From Candidatus Woesearchaeota archaeon (GTDB lineage Archaea; Nanobdellota; Nanobdellia; Woesearchaeales; WAPY01), in assembly GCA_049700835.1 (NCBI GenBank), contig JBNAUL010000002.1, positions 334,275 to 398,274 of the forward strand: a stretch of 64,000 nt of DNA. The letters run 5' to 3'. The position numbers were made by a program. Below, piece by piece: positions 36,001-42,000 of this stretch. Every line of letters starts with the position of its first letter. The stretch's first letter is position 1.

Positions 36001-39000
36001 TCTCTTGGAAGCAGTTCTGCCAAAGCCATTCCGAGCATTGACTTTCCTGTTCCTGGCTCTCCTATGAGCAAAACATGCCTTCTCTGCTTTGCTGCTTTTT
36101 TTATTATCTCAACTGCTCTTTCTTGGCCTATCACCTGTTCTATGAGTTTTTGAGGAACTTTTATCTCTGCTGTTGTTTTGAATTTCATCATCAACTATTG
36201 TGCTTTGCCCTCTATTTAAATATTTTACTTTGTTTTATTATTACATTAGAGTACGGATAAGATAAGTGCAGATAAAAATAAAGTAAAGCGAAACAAAATT
36301 ATAAAACAAGGCAAGCGCTGAAAGTCTGCATTAGTTGATTGAAATATTTTTCAAATGTTTTTAATCCATTCTTCTTTTTTCTCTTTTATTATATTTTTGT
36401 ATTGAAAATGAAAAAGAAAAAACAGCGAAAATTTCGCATTGTTAAGCTGTGATTAAGCTTGATTAAATTATGCTAACAATTTTTTTTAAAATCTTAATTG
36501 CCTAATCTTAGAATTATGCTTAAATTTATGCTAAATCTTTTGCAAGGTTCTGCATTCTGCAATGTTCTGTAAGAATTTAGCACTCAAATCAATTTCTTCA
36601 AATCAATCCCTATTTAATTCTTGGTTCAAATGCTGTTTTGCATGCTTTTTTTAAATACTCTTATTAAATTCAAATTTATCCGTGTTTGCTCTTGTGCTCT
36701 TGTTTTTTTATTAGCTCTTCTTTGTAATTATCTTTGTAATATCTTTGTTCTTATTCTATCATTGTTTTGTTATTCAGCTTTTCTTATTTTTTTTCTTTTT
36801 GTATGACAAAAAGCACTCCCTGCACATGAATACCCCATCAACTTGTTTTAACTCGTCTTTTAGTTCTCCACAGACCTGACAAATTCCGGATGACTGTGAG
36901 AAAACAGGTTTTCTGTCTGCTTCTCTTATGCTCATCTTCTCAGAAATAATTTCAAAGAGTTGCGGCTGTATTTTTAGGATATCTTTCAAGGTTAGGAGCC
37001 CTAACAGCTTCTTTCCGCTTATTACTGGCAGGTGCCTTATTCCTTTTTTCCTCATCAAAATCAAGGCATCGTAGATATCCTTTTCAGGGGTTATTGTTAT
37101 TACTTTTTTAACCATAAAATACTTGACTGGCTTTTTTATGTCTTTGCCGAGCGCAACAATCTTTCTTGTGATATCCTGCTCAGTTATTATTCCCTTTAAA
37201 ATCCCGTTCTCAGACACTGGAATTCCGCCGACATGTTCCTTTCTCATCAACTGCGCGCATTCCTGAACTGTTGTGTCTGGTGTTATAGTGATTGGAGATT
37301 GAGTCATAGCATCGCAAACTTTGCAACCTGTTTTCATTTCACCACCCTTTTTTGCGTTTTATCTCTAAGAATCATTAATATCAAATCATTAATAAATTTA
37401 TCTAAACAAAAGTATATAAATTATTTTTTATGAAAACATTTCAAAAAACAATTCTATTCAGTGAGAAAAAAAGTATATTAATATTCAAAAAATAATATTC
37501 AAAAAACAATTTTGCATTGGAGCATGTTCTTGATTTTATCCTGCGTTGTTGATTAATATATTGATTATTGATTATAATATTAATTATACTATTAATTCTT
37601 TCCTGAATTGGGCTTGTGTCTTAAACGCTGTTCTAAATGCTGTCTTGAATTATGATATGCTGTCTTATGCTATCTTAATTTTCAAATTCTTTCAAAATCG
37701 CTATATCAAAAAATCGCTAAATTAAATCTTGATTTTTATCTTTCTATGCTTTGAAATTTTAGCGCGAATTAGGAAAATTCCATATTTTTCCTGATATGAA
37801 TCTTAGTTGCATTAAACATTGCATTTTTTAATAGGTAATGATTCTAATAATTGATAATGAACTCTATATCCTCGCCTAAAATTCTCTTTATATTCTCAAC
37901 CAAATCTGTTGTCAGAACAGCATTTCCTGGTTTTTCAGCATCGATGAACTTTTCAAACTCCTCCTGAGATATCTCAACGAAATCTGATACTTTTTTCTCT
38001 CCTAATATTTCTGCTTTATAGCATTTGTCCTTTTCCTTTATGTCAGAAACAAGATAGATGTTTTTCTCCATGAAAACAAGCTCTCCTAATTTTGAACCGT
38101 GCTTTACCCTTACCTTTGAACTCTCAAGCTCCCTGAACTTCTTTCTCTGTATGTACTCAAGCAAAAACTTTGTAAGCTCTCCTGCGTCCTTTAGGAATTT
38201 TTTAACATCGATCTTTGAAAGCTTCTGTTCCTCGTAGTCCTTCTTATTCTTTTCAATCATCTTTAGCTTCCTGAAGAAATTTTCAGGAATCTTTCCTGTG
38301 TCCACCAATTTTTCCTTGAAGCACTGCATTAAGTTGTTTTCCTCGCAACTCATAACTCCTTCTTCCTTCAAGCAGTCCCTTACAACGCTTGTAACAGTGT
38401 CGCAAACCTTTAGGAAGTTCTCCTCTTCTTTTGTCTTTTCTATCTGAGAGAACAATCTCTTTATTCTCTTGAGATATTTATCTGCATTTTCCAAGAGTTG
38501 GTCTATTTCTTTTCCTGAAACGCTCTTCTTTATGTTGTGCTCAACATCCTTTCTTAGTTTTATGTTCTCTTCAAGAATATCAACGAATTTGTCCTCAAGC
38601 AGTTTTTCCTTTTTAACGAAGATTTCCCTCATGAGTTCAGGGGTTTCCTTAGGGTCAGGAGGTGGAACTCCATATAACATAAGGGCTGCCTGCGACGGGG
38701 TCAAAATTGCGTAATAGATGTCTTCTATTCCTATGTCCTTAAGTTTGAACTCAACATTCTTGAGCATGTGCTCTCCTGTTGACATGAACATGTCTATTGC
38801 TTCCCTGCTTGGCTTTATCCTTCCCATTTTTAGCAGCTGCTTCCAAGGAACAAACAAACCCCTGTCATACAAAGGAATTCCATCTCTCAGCAAGGTGAAT
38901 ATTATAGGATTTGCTTCTCTCAAAGAATCCCAAAAATCAGTCAGTATGTAAACTTGGATGTTCAGTTTGTTCTTTATTCCTGTAATTTCTCCTGCTTCTA

Positions 39001-42000
39001 TTCCCATTCCAATTATTATTGCTCTAAGTTTGTCTTTCAATTCTGCCCTGCTCATCCTTTTTACATCTGTATCATCAATAACAATCCAAACATCAATGTC
39101 TGACTCCTTTGTTGCCCTTCCCTTGACTATAGAACCAGCCAAAACATAACTAACGATATATCTCTCAAACTTTTTTATAACCATTGTTTTGTGAATTTCA
39201 GAAATCTTTATAGCAGAAAGCATTCCTTTCTCATATACTGGAACTGAAAGCGCAAGCCTCTTCAAGATTTCATATCTTGCATCAAGGCAAAACTGCCAAA
39301 GTTCTGATAGCAGCAGGATTTCTGTTTTTAGCTGAGCATTAACCTCTTTTGCAAAAGAATCAATTATTGCTGAAATCTTTGATTTCAGCTCTTCCTTGCT
39401 CATCTTGGTTGAGTCAGAATCGTCAATCATGACAAGAAGATTAAAGTTCAAACCCTGTTTTGCTCCTGATGCTTCTGAAGCTTCTTCAGGATTTTTTTCA
39501 TCTACGCTGCTTTCATCTTTCTTATTCTCGCTTTCAGCAGGAACAAGGGCTATTCCAATAACATAGTCCTCAAACTTTTCAAGAATTCTTTTCTTTAACC
39601 TTTCAACGCTCTCTGTAAGTTCCTTTAATTTGTTTTTTATTTCTTCAGGAAGATTTTCCATTAATTTGTTCAAATTGTTTAAATCCTGATTTGTTATCTC
39701 TTTTTCCTCATTAGAATTCTTGCCTGTATCTTTAATCTCTTCCTTTTTTTTATTGCCAACTGCCTCTTTTTTTGCCATAAGAACACCTTGATTTTTTATG
39801 AAATTGTTAATAAGCAACAGGTATTTAAATATTGTTATTTAGAATGCATTATTAATGCATTATTAATTATTATTTAAGATAACTTTGCTCAGGAGATTAA
39901 ATTCTGCGTTTAATTTTCTATTCTGGACAATGCTTGAAAATGCGGGGGCTGGGATTCGAACCCAGGTAGGCACTAAGCCACATGGTCCTAAGCCATGCCC
40001 CTTTGACCTCTCGGGAACCCCCGCAAAATTTCAAAGACAAAAATAAAAAATTAAAAAAGTTTATATTCAAATGTGAATTTTTTATTTTTATGAAAAGTAA
40101 ATTAATGCTTGTCTATAAAAAACTTTTGAATAAGTACGGTGAGCAGGGATGGTGGCCAATATTAAAGCAGAATTCATTCGAATACAGAACTTTTTTCAAA
40201 CATGAAAAAAAGAGTATTAATCAAAAGTTTGAAATTTGCATCGGAGCAATATTAACGCAGAACACTGCATGGAAGAATGTTGAAAAGGCGTTTGTGAACT
40301 TGAGCAGAGCAAATATTTTTTCTCCGCAAAAAATACTCTCAACTCCTGAGAAAAAACTTGCTGAGCTCATAAGGCCTGCGGGTTATTACAATGTGAAAAC
40401 AAGAAAGTTGAAAGAGATAAGCAGGTTTTTCTTGGAGCATAAAGATGATTTTGAGAATGAGAGCTTGAGCAGGGAGGAATTGCTTAGGGTTTGGGGCGTT
40501 GGAAAGGAGAGTGCTGATTACATAATGCTGTATGCGCTGAACAAGCCATTCTTTGTTGTTGATGCCTACACCATAAGAATATTTTCAAGGTTAGGGTTCT
40601 TTGATGAGAAAAGCAACTATGATTTTGTTCAAGAATTCTTTCAAAAAAACTTGGCAAAGGATTACAAGATTTACAATGAATACCACGCATTGATAGTTGA
40701 GCATGCAAAGAATTGCTGCAGGAAAAAACCTGTTTGCGAAGATTGCGTTCTAAGAAAAGAATGCAAATACTATCAAGACAAAAGGGATAAAAATGCAAGC
40801 AAAGAACAAAGCAAGAAAATTAAAGAGCGCAAATAAAAAAACAAAAAAAANNNNNNNNNNNNNNNNNNNNNNNNNNNNNNNNNNNNNNNNNNNNNNNNNN
40901 NNNNNNNNNNNNNNNNNNNNNNNNNNNNNNNNNNNNNNNNNNNNNNNNNNAAAAAAAATGTTATGGAAAATATGCTAATTCTGTTTCGCGATTAAAGAAT
41001 AGCAATACAGCACAGCATAGAAAATTTTTTAAACAAAACCTTAAATGCTTTCTCTTCATGTTAAAATACGATTTGCATGTTCATACTAAATATTCAAAAT
41101 GCAGCGGTTTGAAACTAAGCACGCTGTTAAAAACAGCAAAGAAAAATGGGTTAAACGGCATAGCAATAACAGACCATAACACAATAAGAGGAGCACTTGC
41201 TCTGAAAAAACTCAACAAGGACAGGAACTTTGAGGTTATTATTGGCGAGGAAATAATGACAAACAATGGAGAACTACTAGCTTATTATTTGAAAGAGGAG
41301 ATAAGACCAGGAGATGTCTTTGAAGTTATTGATAAGATAAAGGAGCAGAATGGCTTGATATCTGTTGCGCACCCATATTCTGTTTACAGGCAAAGAATCG
41401 GCTCTTTCATATTTAAACTAAAAGGAAAGATTGACGCTGTTGAGGTTTTTAATGGGAGAGCAATACTTCCTTATGAGAATAGGCTGGCGCAGAATGCTGC
41501 AAAATTGCTGAATGTTGGGCAGACAGCAGGTTCTGATGCTCATTCAAGAATTGAAATTGGAAAAGCATACACCTTTTTTGATGAAAAATATAATTTGATT
41601 GAAGCAGTTAAAAAGAAAAAAACCAATTTTAAAGGAGTAATTTGGTATGCTTTCCCAGGCGGAATCTCAAGCGGGATTTTCAAGTTAAAAAACTTTTTAA
41701 GAATCTAAAATTTTAAAAATCTAAAATAACATGAATAACACATATAGTATATATAGAAATATATAGAATATAGGATATAGAATATAGAATTAAAATATAA
41801 AAATTAAAGTTATGAAATAAATAACAGACAATCATAAAAAAATATGAACAAGATAACAAAAAGAAAGGTTTTCAAAGAAAAGAGATTTGAAAACAAAGTA
41901 GTTTAGCAAATAGTGAATAAAATGTATATCAATATACTTTATAATTATAAAAAACAGAAAAATTTATAAATGAGAAGATATTTCTATCTGATATAGCTGT

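Follow-up and report, generated by a model that had tools for sequence, protein, structure and literature searches.

A single-chain nucleotidyltransferase–HEPN protein with a nested internal duplication, conserved in Nanobdellota and a candidate domesticated housekeeping enzyme

What is the role of a 644-residue protein that recurs almost throughout Nanobdellota, a phylum of very small, symbiotic archaea, and that Pfam recognizes through one short match? To our knowledge, very few lineage-specific core proteins exist in DPANN archaea. The gene lies in the window, the 64,000-nucleotide stretch of contig JBNAUL010000002.1 from a Candidatus Woesearchaeota archaeon that was analyzed here. Its open reading frame runs on the minus strand from an ATG at 39778, preceded by GGTG 5 nt ahead, to a stop codon at 37844–37846. 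NTP_transf_2 (PF01909) is alone in scoring above the Pfam threshold (aa 204–248, 26.5 bits vs a cut-off of 21), with Polbeta, Adenyl_cycl_N, and MTPAP-like matches remaining below it. A homologue search recovered 4071 proteins among 7999 scored candidates, and the 120 homologues listed of these 4071 are 607–690 aa long and 53–100% identical. The reading frame, the lone Pfam match, and the outcome of the homologue search, including the source names quoted, all agree with a preliminary description of the locus. The features are as follows, with column counts (x/39) throughout taken from alignment A1 of 39 family sequences.

37844..39778, minus strand: whole gene (644 aa plus stop), a long-form MNT-HEPN protein, ortholog of NEQ050
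39608..39778, minus strand: N-terminal tail, residues 1–57, Lys/Glu-rich and poorly conserved, then a helix
39221..39607, minus strand: NT', residues 58–186, the degenerate nucleotidyltransferase copy
38813..39220, minus strand: NT, residues 187–322, an active-looking minimal nucleotidyltransferase (MNT) module (PF01909, Foldseek, VIA)
39092..39136, minus strand: catalytic motif G215-S216...D227-x-D229 (A1 columns)
38429..38812, minus strand: HEPN domain of the UPF0332 type, residues 323–450 (VIA, Foldseek, profile)
38537..38551, minus strand: K410-D-V-E413-H414, preceded by R409 and located where HEPN domains have their Rx4H motif
38111..38428, minus strand: HEPN', residues 451–556, a second, degenerate HEPN-like helical bundle
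37847..38110, minus strand: small C-terminal beta-rich domain, residues 557–644 (AF2 model)
36774..37337, minus strand: gene for a 187-aa protein with a CBS pair and a zinc ribbon, downstream of the 644-aa gene (Pfam CBS, E 1.9e-31)

The order of the domains, NT' (dead)–NT (active-looking)–HEPN–HEPN'–beta, is a nested internal duplication, and this anatomy is new here. NT' aligns with the second module by hhalign (probability 99.5%, E 2.2e-22, 109 columns) and shares its secondary-structure pattern in the AF2 model; the A1 columns show that its GS and DxD are gone, with the DD(S)D motif kept in part. HEPN' likewise aligns with the HEPN domain (probability 97.0%, E 1.1e-10, 90 columns), and its VIA matches to the DrrA, YutE, and AbiA helical domains have Z scores of 7.7–9.0, a range common for helical bundles. 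The C-terminal domain retrieved PH-like rows only in Foldseek, at low probability. The preliminary description was thus right about a degenerate first module and a small C-terminal beta domain, but it placed a separate helical bundle after each nucleotidyltransferase module, an order that the hhalign results contradict. Strong constraint is confined to the inner NT–HEPN unit, where 29/136 (NT) and 8/128 (HEPN) columns reach 90% conservation; the corresponding counts are 0/57 for the N-terminal tail (median pI 8.8), 1/129 for NT', 0/106 for HEPN', and 0/88 for the beta domain.

The inner NT module carries the hG[GS]...D-x-[DE] motif of Pol-beta superfamily MNT proteins (PF01909/PF18765) on an alpha/beta nucleotidyltransferase fold (AF2 pLDDT 90.7). 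PF01909 matches 33/39 A1 members at E<=0.01. G215 is present in all 39 sequences, S216 in 35, and D227 and D229 in 37 each, so the motif, previously called invariant, is nearly rather than strictly so. VIA ranks ANT(4') first (Z 11.8, rmsd 3.3, 117 aligned), within a group at Z 10–12 that includes 3c18, 2rff, and MNT 8xeh; Foldseek identified the MNT antitoxin 7ae9_E (E 6.8e-5), and the fold matches overall comprise MNT antitoxins, ANT(4'), AAD(9), HalB, DrrA, and GlnE. Motif, PF01909 matches, and fold together support the proposal that this is a Pol-beta-type nucleotidyltransferase, active-looking and accompanied by a degenerate copy in tandem. GlnE and DrrA/SidM adenylyltransferases also combine NT with a HEPN-like domain, and GlnE is internally duplicated as well, but its whole NT-helical units stand in series whereas the 644-aa protein reads NT'–NT–HEPN–HEPN'. 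The ANT/GlnE-like pseudo-dimeric layout suggested earlier therefore stands as a likeness of fold to ANT, GlnE, and DrrA and not as an NT-helical-NT-helical arrangement. SidM_N matches occur in 5/39 A1 members, and the 644-aa protein matches no GlnE or DrrA family model.

The helical region between NT and HEPN' adopts a four-helix HEPN fold, a point missing from the earlier mention of helical bundles. Its closest VIA match is 2hsb (AF_0298; Z 11.9, rmsd 2.8, 102 aligned), which Foldseek also returns (probability 1.0, TMt 0.68); the profile comparison with AF0298 gives E 2.4e-7, and TT1696, sacsin HEPN, and ST0689 follow at Z 8–9. At the position of the RNase motif, K410 and E413 are each present in 37/39 sequences, R409 in 26/39, and H414 in 30/39. 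A conserved Rx4-6H motif is therefore not a feature of the family, although this protein itself has R409 and H414, and in 11/13 orthologs from outside Woesearchaeales the arginine is F, Y, or C while K-x2-E-H is kept. The Tyr of RX4HXY, which we take to be the motif holding the AMPylated Tyr in type VII MntA-HepT, is not conserved either, since the residue at 416, two beyond H414, varies in A1 (E9, K8, T6 ...). Residual RNase activity in Woesearchaeales is possible because most members there, this protein included, retain R409 and H414.

We then consider how widely the protein occurs. The A1 profile matches at E<=1e-10 in 301/301 phylum genomes (299/299 without the unpublished G242 and G243), a count that takes in a short paralog as well as the long form, and in 225/225 genera. 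The long form is found in about 290/301 genomes (289/301 with best E<=1e-127, read off the match table) and is single-copy as described, with one match at E<=1e-100 in 10/10 genomes. Conservation across the phylum is thus nearly complete but not total: seven genomes from five families have only single-unit forms of 362–383 aa (five genomes examined), two adjacent single-unit genes taking the place of the long form in these families. Genome G058, from which the family had been reported absent, encodes a divergent full-length ortholog of 540 aa that is letter for letter NEQ050 of Nanoarchaeum equitans. This protein is the best A1 profile match in G058 and aligns with residues 64–485 of the 644-aa protein at 30% identity (E 2e-45), collinear including NT', which establishes orthology to NEQ050 and its DPANN cluster cls.004259. 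Because the family is active-looking, near-universal, single-copy, and conserved in genomes of 0.5–2 Mb, it is likely important to the biology of the phylum.

This orthology also means that the family was already on record, having been flagged for study in 2019. Makarova, Wolf, and Koonin (PMC6393860) describe cls.004259 as a fusion of MNT with HEPN that occurs in 36/67 DPANN genomes and stands in a house-keeping context; they term it "most probably a toxin-antitoxin module" and place it among four priority candidates for DPANN. Their passages on the cluster mention neither the domain duplication nor the dead modules, the paralog, or the ribosomal-gene linkage.

The gene neighborhood differs between lineages. 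Outside Woesearchaeales, the L35Ae and L10e genes each lie directly downstream on the same strand in 8/13 families, and L30e-NusA-S12-S7 lies upstream in 3/13. Within Woesearchaeales, the order to which the window belongs, L10e is encoded nearby in just 2/81 loci; the gene for the CBS and zinc-ribbon protein is downstream on the same strand in 35/81 loci and is the first downstream open reading frame in 22/67 loci with at least 900 bp downstream. Because ribosomal protein genes accompany it in an operon-like manner in many lineages, the proposed acceptor most likely belongs to the translation apparatus. The linkage may reflect co-expression only, and the family is possibly connected to translation. 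The tRNA-Leu beside the 644-aa gene is not a conserved neighbor, with a tRNA upstream in 0/80 related loci. Identification as an archaeal class I CCA-adding enzyme was rejected, as the protein has no tRNA_NucTransf2 (PF09249) match and a canonical gene lies elsewhere in the genome (C2:437091-437834).

On balance, we think it probable that the protein is a domesticated MNT-HEPN enzyme: a housekeeping nucleotidyltransferase with one catalytic center and a HEPN lobe that is not an RNase, acting most likely on the translation apparatus. A toxin-antitoxin-type NT/HEPN pair would have been fused into one chain and then internally duplicated, so that the single chain would mimic the dimers in which MNT and HEPN proteins usually work, with one catalytic center kept in the inner unit. 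In the inner NT, G215-S216 and D227/D229 would hold the Mg-NTP, with ATP the most likely nucleotide, and the NMP, probably AMP, would then pass to a hydroxyl on a macromolecular acceptor. The inner HEPN domain (K410, E413, H414, Q363) would act as the lobe that binds nucleotide or acceptor, as its counterparts do in ANT, GlnE, and DrrA, and the role would be housekeeping rather than defense. The acceptor may, tentatively, be a protein, less plausibly an RNA 3' end, and otherwise something else. Fused MNT-HEPN proteins typically have an inactive HEPN, according to the part of PMC3710099 that treats them, and are presented there as domesticated protein-modifying enzymes.

An alternative that we consider unlikely, though it fares best among the rivals, is a nucleotidyltransferase that works on RNA 3' ends, tailing or repairing tRNA, rRNA, or RNAs of another kind, with the HEPN domains and basic N-tail binding RNA. 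The ribosomal-protein gene context, the basic NT module (median pI 9.4) and N-tail, and weak matches to the Pfam MTPAP-like poly(A) polymerase palm in 14/39 members all fit such an enzyme, as does the presence of HalB, an MNT-like oligonucleotide maker, among the fold matches; HEPN domains are also described as often RNA-binding in PMC3710099. The fold comparison, however, places the protein and small-molecule modifiers MntA, ANT, DrrA, and GlnE at Z 8–12 vs about 6 for PAP, TUTase, and CCA enzymes. The genome already encodes a canonical CCA-adding enzyme, and the lack of conservation of the adjoining tRNA-Leu also argues against an RNA acceptor.

The published toxin-antitoxin label invites a further reading, which we judge very unlikely, that the chain is an active RNase whose HEPN domain is held in check through AMPylation by its own NT module, as in MntA-HepT. 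The NT and HEPN folds are indeed shared with that type VII system: Foldseek ranks the MNT antitoxins of HEPN-MNT systems highest (7ae9, 7ae2, 7bxo, 8xeh), HEPN toxins occur among the VIA matches, and R409-x4-H414 is present here. MntA-HepT, however, consists of two separate genes, a HEPN toxin and an MNT antitoxin, and not of one duplicated, nested 644-aa chain. The NEQ050 family conserves neither the RNase arginine nor the tyrosine at 416, and its near-universal, single-copy occurrence in a housekeeping context differs from the patchy, mobile spread of toxin-antitoxin systems. The NCBIfam MntA equivalog model scores the 644-aa protein at 22.6 bits vs a cut-off of 60, and PADLOC gave weak motif-level matches only.

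It is similarly improbable that the protein is an ANT-like enzyme modifying a metabolite or a host-derived compound. In ANT(4')/KNTase, AAD(9), ANT(3'')(9), and LinB, a HEPN-like helical domain likewise follows NT; ANT(4') is the top VIA match of the NT module, AAD(9)/ANT(3'')(9) match the HEPN domain at Z 7.5–7.6, and LinB is also retrieved. CBS domains can sense adenylates, and the CBS-domain neighbor could do so here. The 644-aa protein is, however, much larger than these enzymes, archaeal, and housekeeping, with extra dead modules, and its scores with the NCBIfam ANT models fall far short of the cut-offs (ANT(9), 21.8 vs 340 bits). The multidomain scaffold, the ribosomal gene context, and the TPR-fused relatives point instead to a macromolecular partner; among distant homologues, 10/11 long forms carry N-terminal TPR arrays of ~700 aa, a protein-interaction scaffold. 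Least probable of all is a noncatalytic scaffold or ribosome-binding factor that, like RsfS, would do no more than keep an NTase-like fold. Such a factor would fit the already dead NT', the weak fold matches to RsfS and RimP (Z 5.8–5.9), and the ribosomal gene context, but the inner GS/DxD is kept in 35–39/39 diverse members, which would be unexpected without catalysis.

For the domesticated enzyme that we favor, the anatomy yields predictions, namely one live catalytic center within a nested duplicate, a repurposed HEPN domain that would no longer be an RNase, and the linkage to ribosomal genes. The ortholog NEQ050 belongs to a cultivable organism, which makes experimental tests feasible. The protein would then exemplify a toxin-antitoxin-type module domesticated into a housekeeping enzyme. 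A more speculative and rather doubtful extension would make it a DPANN-specific AMPylase, a single-chain nested pseudo-heterodimer that nucleotidylylates a translation component (a ribosomal protein, a factor, or an rRNA or tRNA end) and so sets translation by adenylate supply, with the CBS/zinc-ribbon neighbor acting as adenylate sensor in Woesearchaeales. If true, AMPylation of the translation machinery would constitute an essential regulatory layer peculiar to host-dependent DPANN archaea.

Finally, the same genomes contain a second conserved paralog, an NEQ362-like NT-HEPN protein of about 256–276 aa, conserved across Woesearchaeota (2170 matches). It is collinear with the inner NT–HEPN unit (30% identity over residues 200–442, E 1e-36) but is without NT', HEPN', and the beta domain, as well as W312-K313, R298-D299, and the K-x2-E-H motif.

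The gene starts with an ATG at 39778 and ends with a stop codon at 37844-37846 on the minus strand, an open frame of 644 amino acids; this frame and the Pfam NTP_transf_2 match of the preliminary description are confirmed. A GGTG precedes the ATG by 5 nt, and the stretch TTTAAATA occupies 39822-39829 within the very AT-rich upstream spacer. NTP_transf_2 (residues 204-248, 26.5 bits against a cut-off of 21) is the sole Pfam match over cut-off; Polbeta, Adenyl_cycl_N and MTPAP-like matches are sub-threshold, NCBIfam returned only MntA and ANT(9), both far below threshold, and PADLOC gave only motif-level matches to candidate families resembling minimal nucleotidyltransferases (MNTs). 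A PDB sequence search with the single protein found nothing meaningful (best E 2.6). The homolog figures reported earlier were reproduced: the search scored 7999 candidates and kept 4071 proteins, of which 120 were listed, with lengths of 607-690 aa and identities to the query of 53-100%. Their names are "nucleotidyltransferase domain-containing" and "UPF0332 family/predicted nucleotidyltransferase". In an exhaustive phmmer search over cluster representatives, 635 proteins reached E<=1e-3, and 175 of these reached E<=1e-30.

We folded the protein as two separate halves, each from its own alignment (43 and 51 sequences), and obtained predicted models with pLDDT values of 90.7 (residues 60-335) and 91.6 (residues 300-644). 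The N-half model shows one strand/helix pattern twice. Its second copy (NT, residues 187-322) matches MNTs and their relatives in both Foldseek, where the MNT antitoxin 7ae9_E (E 6.8e-5) is followed by MntA, ANT(4'), AAD(9), and HalB, and VIA-align, where ANT(4') scores Z 11.8 (rmsd 3.3, 117 aligned), 3c18 and 2rff 10.7, MNT 8xeh 10.2, and DrrA, LinB, and GlnE Z 7.6-8.2. In the range of the first copy (NT'), VIA-align returned weak rows only (KhpB, Z 6.4; RimP, Z 5.8), the list being filled by the second module, and the nucleotidyltransferase ancestry of NT' therefore rests on hhalign. Since residues 58-186 align with 187-322 over 109 columns (probability 99.5%, E 2.2e-22), NT' is, by this profile comparison, a duplicate of NT. 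DUF7935 on the first module was dismissed as noise: it is sub-threshold and rare, seen in 3 close homologs and 2 of 39 family members, with no match in the genome of the window. A literature search for DUF7935 found no paper.

The predicted C-half model places a HEPN domain at residues 342-446. The best VIA match is AF_0298 (2hsb; Z 11.9, rmsd 2.8, 102 aligned), followed by TT1696, sacsin HEPN, a HEPN toxin, and ST0689 at Z 8-9; Foldseek also retrieves 2hsb (probability 1.0, TMt 0.68), and the family profile matches AF0298 (UPF0332) among PDB sequences at E 2.4e-7. The following bundle (HEPN', residues 451-556) aligns with the HEPN domain over 90 columns (hhalign probability 97.0%, E 1.1e-10) and on that basis is a diverged copy of it. 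The chain ends in a predicted beta-rich domain of ~88 residues, for which an ESM Atlas look-up gave no usable match and hhalign indicated no relation to the L35Ae and L10e profiles (probability 0.2-0.3%). Taken module by module, the fold matches and the two hhalign duplications give the nested order NT'-NT-HEPN-HEPN'-beta. The preliminary description is thus partly supported: its helical bundles are present and can now be identified as HEPN domains, whereas its serial, GlnE-like layout is not borne out, as GlnE follows the order NT-helical-NT-helical.

Residue conservation was read from an alignment of 39 family members, 29-70% identical to the query. The catalytic residues of the inner NT module are retained nearly throughout (G215 in 39/39, S216 in 35/39, D227 and D229 each in 37/39), as is the stretch D235-D236-T237-D238 (38-39/39). 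At the NT' positions equivalent to the DxD motif stand K/Q/E and N/H.

Columns at least 90% conserved, by region of the protein
NT: 29 of 136
HEPN: 8 of 128
NT': 1 of 129
HEPN': 0 of 106
Beta domain: 0 of 88
N-tail: 0 of 57

The Rx4H site of the HEPN domain reads R409-K-D-V-E-H414 in the target. Across the alignment the arginine is found in 26 and the histidine in 30 of the 39 sequences, and K410 and E413 in 37; in orthologs from other orders, F, Y, or C replaces the arginine in 11/13 while K-x2-E-H stays. Because the needed arginine is replaced in those 11, RNase activity is unlikely to be the conserved function of the family. This loss agrees with a generalization in passages of PMC3710099, according to which the residues for RNase activity are usually missing from MNT-fused HEPN domains, and the fusions derive from toxin-antitoxin modules that were domesticated as modifying enzymes, among them GlnE, kanamycin nucleotidyltransferase, and DrrA.

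With the alignment as a profile, matches at E<=1e-10 were found in 301/301 phylum genomes and 225/225 genera (299/299 genomes without the unpublished G242 and G243); all genomes searched were at least 90% complete and belong to one class. All but ~9 rows show two or more matches per genome. The single copy claimed for the long form holds: in ten other families, represented by one genome apiece, exactly one match per genome reached E<=1e-100 (10/10). Conservation across the "whole phylum" holds nearly, but not exactly. By our reading of the match table, the best E value is <=1e-127 in 289/301 genomes. The 12 weaker genomes include one with a divergent full-length ortholog of 540 aa (G058), two with a short paralog only (G081, G123), and five from as many families (G018, G088, G274, G276, G282) that encode a protein of 362-383 aa with just one NT and one HEPN; the remainder, outside these tallies, are G127, G186, G141, and G218, the last two from the family of G018. 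The five single-unit genes (loci L127, L126, L123, L124, and L125, respectively) represent families of the class without the long nested protein. In 4/5 of these genomes (G088, G274, G276, and G282), a paralog of 253-281 aa lies 1-2 kb away, and such a gene pair may correspond, in unfused form, to the nested chain.

Short paralogs also accompany the long form. The second match in the genome of the window is a 276-aa NEQ362-like NT-HEPN protein (G000:C2:106221-107099; locus L089, 1624-2454, minus strand), 30% identical to target residues 200-442. Its family is well conserved, with 2170 matches, mostly 55-60% identical among the 120 listed, and it is conserved across Woesearchaeota. By sequence reading, the 276-aa gene adjoins ORFs resembling a TYW3-type tRNA-modification protein, a YbaK-type deacylase, and CutA. 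In 2/13 non-Woesearchaeales genomes (loci L110, L116), the opposite strand carries a short NT-HEPN paralog within 3-4.5 kb of the long gene.

A further correction to the preliminary description is that the family has been published before. In G058 the 540-aa ORF matches NEQ050 of Nanoarchaeum equitans at every residue, and the short paralog of that genome is NEQ362. The passages of PMC6393860 concerned with the NEQ050 family (cls.004259) take its unusual conservation to suggest an important role. Searched in full text, NEQ050 gave 16 hits without another relevant paper, the rest being unrelated DOI strings; a search for Woesearchaeota with nucleotidyltransferase gave unrelated work only, judged from the listing, and a term search of two DPANN protein-family papers found neither "nucleotidyltransferase" nor "HEPN".

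Gene context was examined in the window and in 80 related loci, the best from a scan of genome contigs, all Woesearchaeota-like despite their record titles; ORFs of at least 80 aa were called with our own script and clustered by BLASTP. Among the close homolog loci (L008-L087), many belong to MAGs whose record title is "uncultured Methanosarcinales archaeon", and one has the title "Candidatus Aminicenantes bacterium". The orthologs in these loci are 51-59% identical, and the titles seem to reflect placeholder naming or mis-binning, not true occurrence in those taxa. The window contains the following features.

30392-32884, minus strand: 830-aa ORF, weak DUF11 match (E 1.1e-4), otherwise unannotated
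34272-36194, minus strand: archaeal LonB-type protease, two genes downstream of the target, same strand
36774-37337: CBS-pair and zinc-ribbon protein
37844-39778, minus strand: tandem nucleotidyltransferase (target)
39940-40025, minus strand: tRNA-Leu (anticodon TAG), directly upstream of the target, same strand
39982-40836, plus strand: HhH-GPD base-excision glycosylase homolog, divergent from the tRNA/target side
41058-41708, plus strand: PHP-domain protein, divergent from the tRNA/target side
42062-44413: S-layer-like protein, after the PHP-domain gene

The CBS-pair/zinc-ribbon gene is the sole recurrent neighbor, downstream on the same strand in 35/81 loci; where at least 900 bp of downstream sequence is available (67 loci), it comes first among the downstream ORFs in 22. 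The tRNA-Leu has no encoded CCA and is followed by TTTT; a link to it was rejected, a tRNA being upstream in 0/80 related loci. In 13 genomes from 13 non-Woesearchaeales families, chosen from the match table blind to context (G018 and G088, without the long form, were excluded), the next genes in the same direction include L35Ae in 8/13, L10e/L16 in 8/13, and either in 9/13, often overlapping or within 70 bp. L30e-NusA-S12-S7 precede the gene in 3/13 families, and Pfam confirmed one representative of each ribosomal-context gene. This linkage confirms and sharpens the "house-keeping context" of PMC6393860. Only 2/81 Woesearchaeales loci have an L10e gene in the vicinity. A complex prediction for the G044 ortholog with L35Ae and L10e scored 0.00, which we counted neither for nor against. 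The sequencing runs listed as containing the window locus are DNA runs labeled hot springs metagenomes, with no RNA run among them.

The best-supported explanation is that the target is a domesticated MNT-HEPN enzyme. The inner NT-HEPN unit would hold one live nucleotidyltransferase center, with the dead outer NT'/HEPN' pair acting as its built-in partner. We infer nucleotidyl transfer activity, the nucleotide used, and the acceptor: by analogy with MntA, GlnE, DrrA, and ANT, an NMP, probably AMP, would be transferred to an acceptor hydroxyl, in a housekeeping function possibly tied to translation. A protein is the leading, though tentative, candidate for the acceptor. An RNA 3' end seems unlikely; the target is not the CCA-adding enzyme, because a canonical archaeal one is encoded elsewhere in the genome. 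Similarly doubtful, even taken together, are three other readings: transfer to a small molecule, a regulated RNase, and a role without catalysis. The family itself is no surprise to specialists; added here are the nested duplication, the single putative live center, the RNase-arginine loss, a second paralog that is itself conserved, the two-gene arrangement of five families, and the link to ribosomal genes. The protein offers a tractable conserved enzyme in a poorly understood phylum.

Longer fused relatives also exist. Among the 150 best representatives, 11 are 1083-1340 aa long with the homologous region at the C-terminus, and 10/11 have TPR matches in the ~700-aa N-terminal part. Distant homologs noted as such long forms are P0174, P0176, P0180, P0185, P0198, P0201, P0212, P0225, P0248, P0269, and P0403. 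A search aimed at longer fused forms gave only 3 proteins at E<=1e-10, of which the 2 scanned with Pfam both carry TPR; the third is P0403. This further long form is labeled as from a Phycisphaerae bacterium MAG and may represent the family or a relative outside archaea, or a mis-binned contig.
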